Shown here piece by piece: positions 5,771 through 12,588 of a stretch of DNA of 12,588 bases. Position 1 is the first letter of the stretch; the number at the start of each line of letters is the position of its first letter. The DNA comes from Promethearchaeota archaeon (GTDB lineage: Archaea > Asgardarchaeota > Lokiarchaeia > Sigyniarchaeales > SOKP01). The notes below the pieces were generated by a model, which was not told the origin of the DNA, made no database searches, and saw only the letters and a list, made by a program, of their open reading frames with translations. The DNA is taken from NCBI GenBank assembly GCA_048938855.1, contig JBHLLT010000046.1:2684-15271 (forward strand), in the 5' to 3' direction. The position numbers were made by a program, and so were the translations under genes.

Positions 5771-7456
5771 TTACAAAGAAATTTTTATTTCTTTGCCAAA
5801 TAGAATTTTATTTGCCTCTTCAAACGCGTAATTATAATCAAAAATGGTTTTTCCTTTAATAGTCGATGCTTTTTTAAGAATATTTGTTTCAATATTGGAC
5901 TTTAAACGCCCTAAAGCTAGTGCTCCAATTCCGAATATGGTAGGATATATTTCTTTATTATTATCTTTTGGCTTTAAGCCTTCAATACCATATGGAGGAA
6001 CTAAATTTATATCTATCACTATTTTATCTTTTAATTGAGCCATTAGATCTTTTGATAAAATTTGTATCCCGGCAGCAGCTAAACTCCATATTACATCTGC
6101 ATCTTTAATTATTTCTAATTTCTTTTTATCATTTGGAGCAAAAACGCCATGAATTTGTGTTGCATTTTCTCCTGCTTCTTTCATTAATTCTTTTGACAGA
6201 TTTTTTATAAAATCTTCACTCGATCCTTCCCATGTTTCCACAAAATAGGTATTACAATTTAATTTCGCTGCTAATATCGCTGCTATCCTCCCAACTGGAC
6301 CTGCTCCTAAAAGAACTACTTTTTTCCCTTTTAATTCAGATAAACCATGTTCTCTGCCAATTTCAATAGTCTTAGCAACTACTGAAGAAGCTGTAGTGTG
6401 TGAACCACGAGGATCTATTATCACAGGGCATTCAAAAGGAGGTACTAATGACTTTATGACATTTTTAGCTATTTTTTCTCCTTCTTTGACAATAGAACCC
6501 CCTATAAAGAATGTAGTAGGAGCATTTGGTTTCCGGGAAAAAATGGCATCCTGTACTAATTTGGGTACTTGTTCAGCAGTCATCTTACTAATAGGTATAA
6601 CGACATCAAAACCTGCGTCGTAAGCCATGTTAATATCGAATGGAGAAGCGTTATCATCAGTATCAAAAAAATAGCATATCTTTTCTAATGATTCTTTCTT
6701 TTTTACTTTTATCGGAGATAATTCGAGTATACTTTTTCCAATTACATTTTTAATTGAATTAGAACCTGGGTTATTTATTATTGTTGCAGATCTTTTAATT
6801 TTAATTTCTTCAGTTCCAATACCTAATTCTTCAGCTAATTTGCTTATTCCCTCAAAGTGTCTTGAATCACAGATAAAAAATGCAATCAATTTTTTTCCTA
6901 TCATCTGTCGTGCAAATTTTAGAATTCCCATCATCATCCAAGCTTCTCGAACATTATATCTTATCTCATTTTCTTGAGAAGAATATTCTTGCTGTAAATA
7001 TTCCTTCCATAAAGCCATCCGTTGAAATTCTAAATCATCTTTTAAAATTTCATACTTTTTTTCCTTTTTAATACTTTCAATTGATTTTGTTAATTGTTTT
7101 ATAAGTACTCTTTGTTCTTCTAAATTGGAGGAAAGATAACTTTCAGCGTTTTCTGAGATATCTACCATTTTATAATGGATATTATTCTCTCTAAATAGAG
7201 TTTGTAATAGATCTTCAGTTGTAATTGTATCTTCCCACCGACTTCCTTTCTCTTCGACAGCAAAATCAGGATTATATTTAGCTATAAGATTCTCAATTAA
7301 ATTTAGATATTCCCTTGAAATTAGATGTAAATTCCATACTAAATCATGTTTTTTCTGAGCTGAGGCTTCAAACCACCAATCTATAGGAAACTCACTTTCT
7401 ATTAATACCATTTTTAGATTTTTATTTTTTAAAGGTTTTAATTCTAAAACTTCCAT
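5771..7456 (-). CDS. mtdB: NAD(P)-dependent methylene-tetrahydromethanopterin dehydrogenase (MtdB/MtdA family) fused to a ~220-aa N-terminal domain of unknown function
   Basis: aa ~258-561 carry FFDTDDNASPFDINMAYDAGFD, VQDAIFSR, FIGGS, VPPFE..IIDPRGSHTTAS, the Rossmann motif VVLLGAGPVG, AAAGIQIL, IDINLVPPYGIEG and GIGALALGRLK. These are diagnostic of Mtd and closer to MtdB. GAGGGG SD upstream. Confidence 0.85.
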   Translation of the reverse strand: MEVLELKPLKNKNLKMVLIESEFPIDWWFEASAQKKHDLVWNLHLISREYLNLIENLIAKYNPDFAVEEKGSRWEDTITTEDLLQTLFRENNIHYKMVDISENAESYLSSNLEEQRVLIKQLTKSIESIKKEKKYEILKDDLEFQRMALWKEYLQQEYSSQENEIRYNVREAWMMMGILKFARQMIGKKLIAFFICDSRHFEGISKLAEELGIGTEEIKIKRSATIINNPGSNSIKNVIGKSILELSPIKVKKKESLEKICYFFDTDDNASPFDINMAYDAGFDVVIPISKMTAEQVPKLVQDAIFSRKPNAPTTFFIGGSIVKEGEKIAKNVIKSLVPPFECPVIIDPRGSHTTASSVVAKTIEIGREHGLSELKGKKVVLLGAGPVGRIAAILAAKLNCNTYFVETWEGSSEDFIKNLSKELMKEAGENATQIHGVFAPNDKKKLEIIKDADVIWSLAAAGIQILSKDLMAQLKDKIVIDINLVPPYGIEGLKPKDNNKEIYPTIFGIGALALGRLKSNIETNILKKASTIKGKTIFDYNYAFEEANKILFGKEIKISL

Positions 7457-8085
7457 TAATTATTCCCCTCTTGTTTTATAATTAAATATTGAATATTATG
7501 AACATTAATCATTTCATATATTATTACTTCTATATGAAGTTCTTTTAATTGCTCAGTTATTTCTGAAAGAGACTTTTCATGGAAAAAATAAATAAGAGTT
7601 AATTCTTCATTTTCATTCGATCTTATTATATCTAATATTTTTTTAACAATCCACTGGGGTCTAATTTTTCTCTCTAAAATATCATTATCCTGATTAGCTT
7701 CCTTTTTCAAAACATCAATCCAAGATTTTAAATTCAGGCCTTTTAAAGAATTTTTATCATTCATATTTCTATATTCCATTAATAACTCGCTAATTTGCTC
7801 CTCTTTCTTAAGTATTTCTTCATAAAGATAACCATAAGCATACTCTGGCATATCTAATAGATAATAATCTAAGCCTAAAGCATTTAAAACAGAAAAAAGA
7901 TTAGAATTTTTAAATGTTTTAAAGTTTTCATTATTCATTTCAACTGTAATATAAGAAATGTTATTATCACTTACTAATTCTTTTAATGTATCAATGTCAT
8001 TAAGTTCAAAACTGATTCTATTTTTATCTATTAGATATACAGTAACTTTCTTTTTTTTTATTGGCTTTAATTCCAATACTTCCAT
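7456..8085 (-). CDS. Hypothetical protein (209 aa), stand-alone paralog of the N-terminal domain of the Mtd fusion
   Basis: The SD GAGGT (8093-8097) is 7 nt from ATG 8085 but only 1 nt from ATG 8091, which favours a start at MEVLELKP. The stop overlaps the mtd start (TAATG). It aligns colinearly by eye with aa 1-220 of the downstream protein. Confidence 0.8.
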   Translation of the reverse strand: MEVLELKPIKKKKVTVYLIDKNRISFELNDIDTLKELVSDNNISYITVEMNNENFKTFKNSNLFSVLNALGLDYYLLDMPEYAYGYLYEEILKKEEQISELLMEYRNMNDKNSLKGLNLKSWIDVLKKEANQDNDILERKIRPQWIVKKILDIIRSNENEELTLIYFFHEKSLSEITEQLKELHIEVIIYEMINVHNIQYLIIKQEGNN

Positions 8086-8129
8086 TTTCATTACCTCTAT
8101 TTTATTAATATATCTTAATATATCTATAA

Positions 8130-8176
8130 TAACCTCATAAGGTAAACCCTTTCCACCTTTCTGAGTAATGAGGTTA
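8130..8176 (-). promoter_or_regulatory. Bulged stem-loop in the putative 5' leader of the mtd operon
   Basis: UAACCUCAU[UACUCAGA]AAGGUGGA(AAGGG)UUUACCUU-AUGAGGUUA: a perfect 9-bp stem, an 8-nt bulge and an 8-bp stem with two G-U pairs that form only on the minus-strand RNA. Confidence 0.5.
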
Positions 8177-8230
8177 ACTCCAATTAATTAATAGTCTAAT
8201 TAGAATTTAAAGAGTTTGATAAGAATAATT

Positions 8231-8247
8231 TTTGTCATTTTGACAAA
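8231..8247. promoter_or_regulatory. Inverted repeat TTTGTCA-N3-TGACAAA, candidate operator
   Basis: Perfect 7-bp arms; the same arms recur at 8358-8378. Confidence 0.55.
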
Positions 8248-8307
8248 TAAATTTTTCAAAAAATTTTTTTAATGATTTTTGTTTTCATAACAAATAAGGC
8301 TGTTTCG

Positions 8308-8319
8308 TATATATATAAG
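8308..8319 (-). promoter_or_regulatory. Possible TATA box for the mtd operon
   Basis: The minus strand reads CTTATATATATA, between the two TTTGTCA/TGACAAA inverted repeats. Confidence 0.3.
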
Positions 8320-8357
8320 AATTACTTGATTTTAAAAATTTAAATTTAAAAAAAATA

Positions 8358-8378
8358 TTTGTCAAATTCTCTGACAAA
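8358..8378. promoter_or_regulatory. Inverted repeat TTTGTCA-N7-TGACAAA, candidate operator
   Basis: Same 7-bp arms as 8231-8247, with a 7-nt spacer. Confidence 0.55.
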
Positions 8379-8514
8379 AAAATAAAATTAATTTATCTAC
8401 TATTTTTTAGTTTCAAATAATAAGAATAGACAGCTTAATTTAATTATAAATTACATTTTTTTTTGCAAAAATATGAATTTTTGTGGTATAAAAATAATTT
8501 TTAATTTGCAGAAA

Positions 8515-8530
8515 TAGACATATATGTCTA
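8515..8530. promoter_or_regulatory. Perfect 16-bp palindrome TAGACATATATGTCTA
   Basis: Self-complementary, in the middle of the divergent intergenic region. Confidence 0.4.
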
Positions 8531-8875
8531 ATAAAATATGACAATCCTGTAATTTTTTTTAAAATTTTTATAAGTTTCCTTAATTATGTTAATTTATATT
8601 TATGAATCAAAATTATATTTACATAATTCTGCATTTATTTTTTCTATAATTGAATATTTTCTTACAAATAAAGTCAAAATATTTGGATTTAGAAGACCCT
8701 AATGCTATTTCTGATCAATAATATGCAAGAAAAATATAATTTGAAGCAAGGATTTTTAAATATGAATTACCTTTTACATCTTAGAGATCGATCTTTTTAA
8801 AAATTTTTATTTAGTAAATTTGGATGATATTTTTAAAATGTATTTAATGTTGTTTAGAAGTGTTGGTGATGAAAT

Positions 8876-9028
8876 ATTTTAGTAGAACAAAATAAACATA
8901 AAGAAATTTGTAGTAGATGCAGAATGGTTCTAGAAAATAAAGATTATATATACAGACTTAGAGATCCCAATGTTGTAACTTATGTATGTTCTAAATGCGG
9001 GTATTTTGAGATATATATCAAGGAGTAA
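8876..9028 (+). CDS. Unannotated ~50-aa zinc-ribbon microprotein (C-x2-C-x22-C-x2-C); start uncertain
   Basis: ILVEQNKHKEICSRCRMVLENKDYIYRLRDPNVVTYVCSKCGYFEIYIKE*. The C-terminal CxxCGYxExY is typical of small Zn ribbons. GGTGAT SD-like site at 8865-8870. It ends 6 nt before the HdrD-like ATG. Confidence 0.65.
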   Translation: MLVEQNKHKEICSRCRMVLENKDYIYRLRDPNVVTYVCSKCGYFEIYIKE

Positions 9029-9034
9029 TCCTCA

Positions 9035-10285
9035 ATGTCTTCTTTTACAAATAACAAACTGAGAACTGATATTTCAAGTTTACAAATTTTAGATCAGGAT
9101 ATTAAAAATATAATTTCAACATTAAATTATTGTTATGCATGTAATCGATGTGTAAATGTGTGCCCACTCGCACATTTAAATCTATTTTTTCCACGAAAGT
9201 TGGTTGGTGATATAGTATTTTCTTCAGTAAAGGAAGCGTTAAATAATAATAATATATGGAATTGCCTTACTTGCGGCCAATGTATGATTTATTGTCCGAT
9301 GAGTCAAAAAAATGAAGGGATAGATTTACCTAATTTAATGTTAGAATTGAGAAAAAGTTCAAGAGAAGAAAAAATTCAAGTCAATAGAATTACACAATGT
9401 GGAACTCATAATGAAATTTTTCCATTAATCTCAAAAATGATGAGAAACAATTCGATAAATCCAAATAAGTTAGAATTTTTGGAGAAAAATAATTTAAAAA
9501 CAAAGAGTTCCGGTGAGATTGCATATTTTATTGGTTGCTTACCATTAATGGAAGAAATATTCTATAATTTAGATTTGAAATATACCTCTATACCCATCTC
9601 CGTTATAAGTCTACTTAATGAGGTTGACATTGTACCAGTTGTTTTAAATGAAAAATGTTGTGGTCATGATATCTTATGGGGTAAGGGAGATTTTAATACT
9701 TTTAAAAAATTTGCGGAATACAATACGCAACTTTATAGAAATGCAGGAGTAAAAACTATTATTGTTGGATGTGCTGAAGGATATAGAACTTGGAAGTTTG
9801 ATTATCCAAAAATAATAGAAAATTTTGATTTTAGAGTTTTACATTTTTCTGAATTTTTTCTTGAAAAAAAGATTCTTGAAAATGTCAGATTTCCGTCTTA
9901 TTCTGAAATTAAAGTTACTTATCATGATTCTTGTCGAATGGGGCGAATAGGTGATAAGTTATATAATGCACCAAGAGAATTGATTAAACAAATTCCAGGA
10001 GTAAGACTTATTGAAATGGAAAACATAAAAGATGATGCTAACTGTTGTGGAGTTTCAGCATTTTCAAATTGTAATGATTTTACACGAATATTAAGAGAAA
10101 ATCGTATTAATGAAGCAATTAATACTAAGGCGGATTATTTACTTGTTCCTTGTCCTAAATGTCTAACACATTTTAATTGTTATATAAATGAACTTTCTAT
10201 AGATAAGGAAGAGAATGAATTAAAGAATAAAATAAAAGTAATAGATTTAGCGTCTTTTATAGGGGGTTTGTTAAAACTATTTTAA
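9035..10285 (+). CDS. hdrD: HdrD/GlpC-like Fe-S oxidoreductase (HdrC-like 2x[4Fe-4S] domain plus two CCG domains)
   Basis: CYACNRCVNVCP and IWNCLTCGQCMIYCP; YFIGC...EKCCG...GCAEGY; TYHDSC...NCCG...PCPKC. AGGAG SD at 9021-9025. Confidence 0.87.
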   Translation: MSSFTNNKLRTDISSLQILDQDIKNIISTLNYCYACNRCVNVCPLAHLNLFFPRKLVGDIVFSSVKEALNNNNIWNCLTCGQCMIYCPMSQKNEGIDLPNLMLELRKSSREEKIQVNRITQCGTHNEIFPLISKMMRNNSINPNKLEFLEKNNLKTKSSGEIAYFIGCLPLMEEIFYNLDLKYTSIPISVISLLNEVDIVPVVLNEKCCGHDILWGKGDFNTFKKFAEYNTQLYRNAGVKTIIVGCAEGYRTWKFDYPKIIENFDFRVLHFSEFFLEKKILENVRFPSYSEIKVTYHDSCRMGRIGDKLYNAPRELIKQIPGVRLIEMENIKDDANCCGVSAFSNCNDFTRILRENRINEAINTKADYLLVPCPKCLTHFNCYINELSIDKEENELKNKIKVIDLASFIGGLLKLF

Positions 10286-10301
10286 ATTAATTTAGGAGTT
10301 A

Positions 10302-12588
10302 ATGTGTTTGTTAAATTTGAAGAGTAGTGTTTTAGTCATTGGAGGAGGAATCTCCGGGATACAAGCATCCTTAGATCTAACTAAATTGGGTTTTAAAGTA
10401 TATTTAGTTGAAATTAAACCAACAATAGGTGGAACAATGGCTCAATTAGATAAAATATACCCTACTCTTGATTGTAGTCTATGTATTTTGGCACCTAAAA
10501 TGGTTGATGTATATCGAAATCCAAATATCGAATTATTTTCTTATTCATATGTTAAAAGTATACAAGGAACTGCTGGTGATTACGCAATAACAGTTATTAA
10601 AAAGCCAAGATATATCATTGAAGACCTTTGTAAAGGATGTGGTGATTGTAGCGAAATTTGTCCCGTAAGGGGAATTCCCAATGAATTTGACACTAACCTA
10701 AAAAACAGAGGGGCTATTTATATTCCTTTTCCATCTTCAGTACCACCTATATATCTCATAGATGAATCAAATTGTTTATATTTAAATTTTAAGATATGTG
10801 GACTTTGTGCTAAAGCTTGTAATGCAAAAGCAATAGATTTTTCACAAAAAACCGAAGAAATAAGATTAAAAGTAGGGGCTATTATTATTGCCACAGGATA
10901 TAACCAAGAAATGCCAGAGGTATATGATACTTTTGCTGGTTCTTCCCCTAATGTTTTATCCAATATGCAATTTGAACGTCTTTTATCTGCAAATGGACCA
11001 ACTGGGGGGAAAATAATAAGATTAGATGATAAAAAACATCCTCATTCAATTGCTTTTATTCAGTGTGTAGGCTCCCGAGATTTTCATCATCCTGAATGTA
11101 AAAAATATTGCTCTGCCATATGTTGTATGAATTCGGCTAAAGAGGCAATTGTTGTAAAAGAACATAACCCTAATATTGATTGTTATGTTTTTAATACAGA
11201 AATTAGAGCAAAAGGTAAGAATTTCTATGAATTTATTGAAAAAAGTAAAATCGATTATAATGTAAATTACATAAATGGTCGCGTTTCATATATTAAAGAA
11301 AATTTAGATAATGGGAAATTAAAATTATATTACGAAGATATTGACAAAGAGAAAATTGGAACTTTTGAAGTGGATATGGCTGTATTAGCTAGCGCATTAT
11401 CTCCGCCTCAATCTTATTATGATCTTTTAAAAAAACTTAATTTAGAGTGGAACAATTTAGGTTATCTTCCTGAGACAGATATTATTTCACTTGAAAAAAG
11501 GAATATATTCTTAACTGGTTATTCTAAGAAACCCAATGATATTCAAATGGCAGTTGCTGAAGGTTCTGCATGTGCTGCAAAAATTAGCGAAAAATTAAAT
11601 ATTGTAAGATTTCAAAACATTAAAAAAATGAAATATCCACCAGAGATACCAGTAAATCAAGAGGATGATCCTCGTGTAGGAATTTTAGTCTGTAAGTGTG
11701 GTATTAATATTGGTGGTATTGTTAATGTTTCCGAAGTAGTTAATTATGTCTCCAAATTGCCTTATGTTGTCCACGTTGAAGAAAATATGTATTCGTGTAG
11801 TTCTGATTCACAAGAGCGGATTAAAGAACTAATTAGAAAATACAATCTCAATAGATTCATAGTTGCCTCTTGTACTCCTCGAACTCATGAACAACTTTTT
11901 AAAAACACTTTAAGAGAAGCAGGGTTGAATCCATTTTTGTTTGAGCTGATAAATATTAGAAACCAAGATTCTTGGGTTCATCAAAACGAACCAAACAAGG
12001 CTACTCAAAAAGCTTGTGATTTAATAAGAATGTATTTGGCAAAGGTCATTAATTTAAGGCCATTAGAGACTATCAAAGTTAATGTTGAACAATCAACATT
12101 AATAATAGGGGGAGGAATAGCGGGAATAACTGCTGCTCATAATTTAGCAAACCAAGGATTTGAAGTTTACCTTTTAGATAAAAAATCTTTTCTTGGTGGT
12201 ATTGCCCTTGAATTTATTGATTTATATTATATTCCTATTACAAAAGATGAAATTTTCCAGGAAATTAATGATTTAAAAAACAAATCTAATGTACATATTT
12301 TATTGAATTCAAAGGTAATTGATGTTCAAGGTTATGTTGGAAATTATAAGGTTACTATTAAAAGGATTCAAGAAAATTTGGAAGAACAAACTTTCAATGT
12401 AGGTACAATAATAGTAGCTACGGGAACTAAACAAATAAAGACAACTAGATGGAGAGATTTATCAGAGAAACATCCAAAACATATCCTCATTCAAACAGAA
12501 TTAACTGAGATGAAAGATGAAGATGTTCCGAAATTTAATGATGCTACAATAATACTATGTGTTGATCAAAGAAAAAACGAATTTAATA
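10302..12588 (+). CDS. hdrA: Large heterodisulfide reductase subunit A-like flavoprotein with two FAD modules (3'-partial, at least 762 codons; absent from the ORF track)
   Basis: Manual translation is open to the window end: SVLVIGGGISGIQASLDL, GGTMAQLDKIYPTLDCSLCILAPKM, CKGCGDCSEICP, CGLCAKACNAKAI, FIQCVGSRD...YCSAICCM, then RVGILVCKCGINIGG...VASCTPRTHE...NIRNQDSWVH and a second LIIGGGIAG. AGGAG SD at 10294-10298; the start is ATG 10302 or TTG 10308. Confidence 0.93.
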   Translation, partial: MCLLNLKSSVLVIGGGISGIQASLDLTKLGFKVYLVEIKPTIGGTMAQLDKIYPTLDCSLCILAPKMVDVYRNPNIELFSYSYVKSIQGTAGDYAITVIKKPRYIIEDLCKGCGDCSEICPVRGIPNEFDTNLKNRGAIYIPFPSSVPPIYLIDESNCLYLNFKICGLCAKACNAKAIDFSQKTEEIRLKVGAIIIATGYNQEMPEVYDTFAGSSPNVLSNMQFERLLSANGPTGGKIIRLDDKKHPHSIAFIQCVGSRDFHHPECKKYCSAICCMNSAKEAIVVKEHNPNIDCYVFNTEIRAKGKNFYEFIEKSKIDYNVNYINGRVSYIKENLDNGKLKLYYEDIDKEKIGTFEVDMAVLASALSPPQSYYDLLKKLNLEWNNLGYLPETDIISLEKRNIFLTGYSKKPNDIQMAVAEGSACAAKISEKLNIVRFQNIKKMKYPPEIPVNQEDDPRVGILVCKCGINIGGIVNVSEVVNYVSKLPYVVHVEENMYSCSSDSQERIKELIRKYNLNRFIVASCTPRTHEQLFKNTLREAGLNPFLFELINIRNQDSWVHQNEPNKATQKACDLIRMYLAKVINLRPLETIKVNVEQSTLIIGGGIAGITAAHNLANQGFEVYLLDKKSFLGGIALEFIDLYYIPITKDEIFQEINDLKNKSNVHILLNSKVIDVQGYVGNYKVTIKRIQENLEEQTFNVGTIIVATGTKQIKTTRWRDLSEKHPKHILIQTELTEMKDEDVPKFNDATIILCVDQRKNEFN

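Follow-up and report, generated by a model that had tools for sequence, protein, structure and literature searches.

In a 12,588-nucleotide (nt) stretch of DNA from a Promethearchaeota archaeon (contig JBHLLT010000046.1, positions 2,684 to 15,271; hereafter the window), a two-gene operon on the minus strand encodes three protein modules, and each of them is preceded by a short leader peptide of the pattern xLELxP-hydrophobic-K followed by lysines. The first gene (7456..8085) encodes A1, a free protein of 209 amino acids (aa) plus stop, an alpha/beta domain into which a long helical hairpin is inserted; the second (5771..7456; 561 aa plus stop) encodes a fusion of a paralogous domain, A2, to Mtd, an MtdA/MtdB-type NAD(P)-dependent methylene-tetrahydromethanopterin (methylene-H4MPT) dehydrogenase. 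The reading that we favor, which we regard as evenly balanced between right and wrong, is that the leader acts as a structural element, an arm or strand by which the modules of this enzyme system are held together or assembled; it would appear not to be a signal read by general cellular machinery.

Read on the minus strand, A1 and the fusion both start MEVLELKP, and the identity over the first eight residues that the first-pass annotation of this DNA had reported holds: the A1 leader, MEVLELKPIKKKK (8047..8085, aa 1-13 of A1), and the fusion leader, MEVLELKPLKNKN (7418..7456, aa 1-13 of the fusion), each stand immediately ahead of the first beta-strand of their domain (beta1, aa 13-20). The third such peptide that the annotation had placed ahead of Mtd, again with a Lys-rich run, is located at 6695..6736 as KSILELSPIKVKKK, aa 241-254 of the fusion. 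It is internal, is predicted to form a beta-strand over aa 243-251, and in all Lokiarchaeial orthologs has in common with the N-terminal copies L-E-L-x-P-I-K and Lys at +2 and +4. Apart from the leader, the A1 and A2 domains are 20-22% identical, and profile alignment marks them as homologous (hhalign probability 99.5%, E 7.7e-23, 20% identity). By these comparisons of sequence the two N-terminal leader copies are homologous and inherited through gene duplication, and they would represent one element that was kept while the cores drifted to about 20% identity.

The codons of the leader point to selection on the protein. The A1 leader is written ATG GAA GTA TTG GAA TTA AAG CCA ATA AAA AAA AAG AAA and the fusion leader ATG GAA GTT TTA GAA TTA AAA CCT TTA AAA AAT AAA AAT, so that 4 of the first 8 codons differ synonymously (GTA/GTT, TTG/TTA, AAG/AAA, CCA/CCT). 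The first-pass annotation had read these differences as protein-level selection, and the orthologs agree: amino acids are nearly invariant in 120 fusion and 97 A1 orthologs, and in 18 distinct orthologous copies third codon positions vary under constant residues, with Pro in all four of its codons, Val in GTT and GTA, Leu in TTA and TTG, and Lys in AAA and AAG. A nucleotide-level element (a translation-start or mRNA structure signal) that encodes the same peptide by coincidence might be entertained on the grounds that two of the copies lie at start codons and that the region is A/T-rich, but the third copy is internal, and the proposal, to which we give a vanishingly small chance, is ruled out because synonymous sites vary.

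Conservation was judged on 120 listed orthologs of the fusion (identity 51-98%, length nearly always 553-569 aa) and 97-98 A1 orthologs (identity down to 37%, most of 203-216 aa), and the leader is the best-conserved stretch in both paralog families. The motif is kept in orthologs, as the first-pass reading implied: L4 is present in 120/120 fusion and 97/97 A1 sequences, accompanied in the fusion by E5 (119/120), P8 (117/120) and L9 (113/120) and in A1 by V3 (96/97), E5 (95/97), K7 (96/97) and P8 (93/97). Among 55 aligned A1 orthologs, M1, E2, V3, L4 and K7 are invariant, residues 1-7 thereby holding 5 of the 15 columns that never vary in the A1 family, and the A1 leader is retained in orthologs at 37-47% overall identity. 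Mean column identity is 0.87 in the A1 leader and 0.86 in the fusion leader; it is 0.59 in the remainder of A1 and 0.61 in the A2 core (6782..7417, aa 14-225 of the fusion). For the internal copy it is 0.72, and for the linker before it (6737..6781, aa 226-240), which has insertions and deletions in orthologs, 0.34. Residue 9 is paralog-specific, Leu in A2 and Ile or Val in A1 (95/97), and each leader therefore seems tuned to its own setting. Matches are present in 61 of the 201 genomes of the phylum, and several distant Asgard families have fused A2-Mtd proteins, at 30-37% identity, in which the fusion N-terminus still reads x-L-E-L-x-P-L-K-G-K-K and the internal segment reads hydrophobic-x-hydrophobic-x-P-V-hydrophobic-K-basic. 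Loss of the internal copy from relatives, which the annotation had held to be damaging, is not what is seen, as the segment persists down to 30% identity in the form hydrophobic-x-hydrophobic-x-P-hydrophobic-hydrophobic-K.

Across all open reading frames (ORFs) of at least 80 aa in this genome, 1.405 million residues in all, the strict pattern [VILM][LIVM]E[LIVM]xP[LIVM]K is matched five times, and three of the matches are in this operon; the other two are internal to their proteins and have no Lys run. When scored with a 12-column matrix derived from the leader copies at ortholog N-termini, the internal copy reaches 9.8 bits and ranks 9 of 1,341,652 genome positions, and the chance of such a score anywhere in the two operon proteins is about 0.005. 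Given the pattern count and the matrix rank, a chance origin is unlikely; the similarity of the internal copy is real yet modest, far below that between the two N-terminal copies. Elsewhere in the 3.95-Mb genome neither the strict pattern nor the matrix detects the motif at an N-terminus or in a linker, and no member of the A-domain family beyond A1 and A2 was found there. Since the motif is confined to this operon, it is not a proteome-wide tag, and the reusable signal of that kind proposed in the first-pass annotation can be set aside. The best matches outside the operon lie inside a phosphoglucomutase-like protein (on contig C62) and an OYE-type/FAD oxidoreductase, each ahead of a beta1. 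The latter protein (G000:C34:521442-523463) carries ELKPIKVKKKVMVIGAGPGG ahead of its Rossmann beta1, and Pro-x-Lys-x-Lys-rich stretches before a first strand are thus not unique to the mtd operon.

The C-terminal 300 or so residues of the fusion (Mtd domain, 5795..6688, aa 257-554) are a clear member of the MtdA/MtdB type known from methylotrophic bacteria (PF09176; PDB 1lu9, 6tlk, 6tge), and dehydrogenase activity is predicted for them from sequence and model. Pfam Mpt_N (PF09176) matches aa 272-349 at 86.3 bits (cut-off 27), and a PDB profile search returns MtdA at E 1e-40 and aligns its residue 2 to profile position 255. The AlphaFold2 (AF2) model of the fusion superimposes on 6tlk_A with Z 38.0 and a root-mean-square deviation of 1.8 Å over 285 aligned residues (model residues 257-554) and on 1lu9_A with Z 37.1. 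The GAGPVG nucleotide loop is present, and all 70 orthologs compared keep its G384, G386, P387 and V388. Hence the internal copy is not a buried first strand of Mtd, an outcome that the annotation had named as fatal to its idea: the MtdA fold aligns from residue 257, and the leader occupies 241-254. The solved MtdA and MtdB structures start at beta1; a leader strand, an N-terminal partner domain and a strand-like tail at the C-terminus are all absent from them, whereas the Mtd here has a 16-residue leader, a 240-residue extra domain and a free paralog of that domain. The Mtd leader would thus be an add-on absent from the bacterial enzymes, a putative beta-strand at the A2-Mtd junction. The A-domain leaders likewise precede beta1, outside the core fold of their module.

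Secondary structure and the predicted local distance difference test (pLDDT) of AF2 monomer models, which average 87 for both A1 and the fusion, suggest how such an arm might work. Along the junction of the fusion there follow in order the long final strand of A2 (aa 214-225), a low-confidence linker (pLDDT 58-66), a short helix (aa 235-241), the strand of the internal leader (aa 243-251) and, 9 residues on, Mtd beta1 (aa 260-265). The last A2 strand is long, the equivalent A1 strand has 5 residues (186-190), and the extra length suggests the need for a partner; to judge from the strand lengths in the models, strand 243-251 most likely pairs with 214-225. In the proposed mechanism, the leader would be an extended hydrophobic-L-E-hydrophobic-x-P-hydrophobic-K segment with a basic spacer, set just ahead of beta1 in each alpha/beta module; at the Mtd module it would pair as a strand with the extended last strand of A2, and the arms would bring A1, A2 and Mtd together as one defined complex. 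The general principle of N-terminal arm exchange, or a donated beta-strand, offers the nearest likeness: the leader is short, highly conserved and extended, contains Pro, flanks beta1 without belonging to the core fold, is predicted as a strand where two domains meet, and stays on the downstream module after gene fission. The difference is that here the partner strand, deduced from secondary structure, and any contact or exchange between chains are conjectural. Thus the donated strand that the first-pass annotation suggested stands as far as the internal copy is a predicted strand outside the Mtd fold that remains with Mtd in split genes; the contact between modules is what we deduce.

Those split genes also bear on the history of the junction. 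In one group the same modules are encoded by three genes, A1, A2 and Mtd, and in the 10 split loci examined the cut point lies in the variable linker: the split A2 starts MPEVLELKPLK and ends right past its last strand (e.g., ...EVEIEISK), and the split Mtd starts M..VESILGKKSIIELTPIKIKKKD.., keeping the helix and the leader, with the motif about 20 residues from the start. That the internal copy remains on Mtd after the split fits a contact arm, and because the junction survives gene fission it may be able to work in trans, in which case the same pairing would keep A2 and Mtd together as separate chains. In a tree of Mtd domains (FastTree, 64 rows, midpoint root, Shimodaira-Hasegawa-like support), six split Mtds form one clade (97) nested in an otherwise fused Lokiarchaeial set (99), and most stand-alone Mtds lie outside the fused group; these outside forms begin at beta1 and have no leader. 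Fission is therefore the derived state, since the split Mtds nest in fused forms and the outgroup stand-alone Mtds are leaderless, and most simply the internal leader arose with the fusion junction and not as the N-terminus of an older separate Mtd. The annotation's picture of a relic N-terminus of a once separate, tagged Mtd finds no support in this tree, nor does it agree with the place of the motif in the split protein.

The split forms do show that a separate, leader-bearing Mtd is viable, which might speak for a processing, internal-initiation or degradation signal, that is, cleavage near aa 240, a second start, or an N-degron, and Met-Glu N-termini such as those of A1 and the fusion are typical substrates of N-terminal acetylation. 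However, there is no in-frame ATG, GTG or TTG codon between aa 226 and 254 of the fusion, so that internal initiation near aa 240, which the first-pass annotation had raised, is unlikely here; the motif is predicted as an ordered strand, the split-form start lies upstream of it, and Pfam finds no protease gene in the window. We hold this explanation to be very improbable.

Another departure from the fused arrangement bears on whether the leader could be a true modular docking tag for one common external partner, for example a hydrogenase, an Hdr-type redox complex or a compartment shell. One genome (G159; L046, G159:C4:47500-55500) has three tandem stand-alone Mtd genes of 307-320 aa, adjoined by a 648-aa ORF that we take, by the look of its N-terminal sequence, to be a 2-oxoacid:ferredoxin oxidoreductase, and in a second (G117; L047) two tandem Mtd copies were recovered from a short contig. 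These tandem Mtds nest within the fused clade. In each genome, two copies begin MELLEIKPDKRLIKVIEKE.. (MELLEIKP..) or ME[IL]LKLKS.., and the third G159 copy is leaderless; a profile of the A family detects no A-family domain in G159 (99% complete), G117 (89%) or G019. A tag would account for a leader kept on Mtds where no A-family domain is found, as it would for the same peptide on three modules, but by sequence these N-termini look like an A2 leader and beta1 left after loss of the A2 core (MELLEIKPDKRLIKVIEKE versus MEVLELKPLKNKNLKMVLIESE), and one of the tandem copies is already without the Pro. Gene neighborhoods might be added in favor of a tag, given that the fusion gene of deep lineages follows [NiFe]-hydrogenase genes and that the operon in the window diverges from hdrD/hdrA-like genes. 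Against it, the peptide is absent from all other proteins of the genome, and an arm 4-5 residues from beta1 leaves little room for an independent binding peptide. We judge such a tag unlikely. As for a compartment in particular, the cargo peptides of encapsulins and microcompartments resemble the leader as short conserved terminal peptides on functionally linked proteins; the known ones, however, are found on several unrelated cargo proteins together with shell genes, whereas the leader occurs only in this operon, close against beta1, and Pfam finds no shell or encapsulin-type gene in the window. The cargo signal among the first-pass suggestions is hence not borne out.

The hydrogenase neighborhood belongs to two deep Asgard families, in which genes for the [NiFe]-hydrogenase small subunit (PF01058, E 4e-16) and large subunit (PF00374, E 5e-20) immediately precede the fusion gene and share its strand, as at L038:4117-6191 (G096) and likewise at L035, L036 and L039-L044. 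No free A1 paralog lies beside the fusion gene in these loci. The arrangement hints that in those families the fusion works with a soluble hydrogenase.

A bolder form of the assembly idea brings in the ends of the proteins. Here the leaders, together with the last A2 strand, the A1 tail (..YLIIKQE..) and the Mtd tail (..EIKIS), would constitute a peptide code that zips A1, A2 and Mtd into an ordered one-carbon multi-enzyme complex, perhaps joined by a hydrogenase or an Hdr-type protein; such a code would recall the docking peptides of modular synthases, here within Asgard core carbon metabolism. We consider this doubtful. Both tails are strand-like and conserved within subgroups; in the AF2 models the A1 tail (aa 195-209) has pLDDT below 50, and the Mtd tail GKEIKISL (aa 554-561; 5774..5794, corresponding to aa 555-561), a strand-like extension past the MtdA fold, has pLDDT 52-72 and no strand assigned. 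Among fused orthologs the ending ..ILFGxEIKIS. (hydrophobic-F-G-x-E-I-K-I-S) is frequent. It has been lost in the split clade and in the sister group of that clade, and the sister group also lacks the Pro of the internal leader and has a long linker insertion.

It is possible, if on balance somewhat unlikely, that the leader is simply an internal part of the A domain, a cap or a part of the ligand or active site that packs on its own chain, and that the internal copy is an unrelated strand-Pro-Lys connector with no shared function. Every A-family protein examined begins with the leader, 0-5 residues from the start and never with another domain ahead of it, and in the models residues 1-12 of A1 and the fusion are ordered coil (block pLDDT 79-80) running into beta1. 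E5 is invariant or nearly so alongside a common set of conserved core residues (D99/D78, Y107/Y86, R170/R142, W173/W145 and H200/H166), and a residue 9 fixed per paralog suits a cap as well. On the other side, the matrix rank of the internal copy (9th of 1.34 million positions) and its equivalent place ahead of a beta1, its standing as a conserved island past a variable linker, and the residues in common with the N-terminal copies in all Lokiarchaeial orthologs speak against an unrelated connector, and with cores at 20% identity a purely self-packing arm would normally have drifted too.

Several observations nevertheless weigh against an assembly arm and must be set beside those just given. 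The internal copy resembles the N-terminal ones modestly, at 9.8 bits, and the likeness fades in deep lineages, where the segment is reduced to an alternating strand with Pro and Lys; P-x-K-x-KKK-like stretches also occur before the first strand of unrelated Rossmann-type domains in the genome. The partner of strand 243-251 and the contacts of the N-terminal arms are deduced rather than observed, and the fairly high confidence of the arm in monomers fits packing on its own domain as well as it fits an inter-subunit contact. The Mtds of G159 and G117 keep the leader without A domains, as either a decaying relic or a sign that the arm has a role independent of A. Finally, no covariation between the copies was found, because Pro loss in one copy is unmatched in the other: when the N-terminal and internal copies of deep lineages were compared for a loss of Pro, or a Glu-to-Lys change, in both at once, P0231 and P0238 fit, and P0233, P0236 and the P0073-P0087 group did not.

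The A domain itself, an alpha/beta sandwich with a long helical hairpin in the AF2 models, has no decisive family assignment by Pfam, PDB sequence search, Foldseek, VIA-align or the ESM Atlas. No Pfam family is assigned to A1 or A2, and a profile search of 5.8 billion proteins with the A family returned the same Asgard family only. Weak fold matches are to the N-domains of the tetrapyrrole methylases CbiL and SUMT (Z 8.7-8.8) and to HARP RNase P (E 3e-3); Foldseek adds EreC (E 0.05) and ChaN (E 0.11), at a TM-score of about 0.3-0.36 and both outside the top VIA-align rows; the nearest named ESM Atlas cluster is TraB/GumN, at 0.83. The likeness to the TraB/PrgY/GumN-Tiki-ChaN-EreA fold, an alpha/beta sandwich with a helical insert, yields weak leads only. 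PF01963 (TraB/Tiki/ChaN/EreA-like) has no match among the window proteins and is absent from the matches listed for 55 members of the family (25 of 65 matched families, E up to 1); the GxxH motif after beta1 is missing, with A2 reading ESEF (ESEFPIDWW) and A1 DKNR, and the tetrapyrrole methylase and HARP matches are equally weak. A role for the A domain as a replacement cyclohydrolase was considered and ruled out, the genome having a canonical Mch gene at C34:482334-483302.

As to the locus, the fusion start (7456) overlaps the A1 stop as TAATG, and the fusion is translationally coupled to A1 through this overlap. For A1 the second ATG, at 8085, is the preferred start, because a GAGGT box (8097-8093) lies 7 nt upstream of it and most orthologs start there; the same box is only 1 nt from the alternative ATG at 8091. 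The intergenic region 8092-9034, about 20% G+C and very AT-rich, separates the operon from the divergent hdrD/hdrA-like genes on the plus strand (9035-12587). By Pfam the other genes of the window encode an SBP_bac_5 protein, a Fer4 protein, TauE, and HdrD-like, HdrA-like and MarR-like proteins. Elsewhere the operon is found in multiple forms. Two or three paralogous operons stand side by side in L050 (G171:C72), L048 (G147:C8) and L049 (G040:C52), some of them fused and some split, alongside additional A2-like genes that stand alone (233-238 aa), with nearly the same leader throughout. In L013 (G138:C151) A1 and the fusion gene are in one frame with a single stop codon and a few codons between them, and in L048 (G147:C8) a stand-alone A2-like gene and the fusion are likewise in frame. 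A triple A1-A2-Mtd fusion was also looked for, and no protein of about 770 aa is among the matches listed.

In Asgard archaea the archaeal Wood-Ljungdahl pathway, which has a central place in models of a hydrogen-dependent or syntrophic lifestyle for them, relies on the MtdA/B-type dehydrogenase for its methylene-H4MPT step. A full-text literature search found no description of this fusion or of the peptide. In these archaea Mtd is almost always tied to an unnamed family, A, as a fusion with a free paralog, and no feature of family A is more conserved than the leader. Should the leader prove a self-packing cap only, the finding would be an ordinary family signature; if it is an assembly element, it would give a precise handle on the complex that this enzyme forms and on the roles of the A domains in it.

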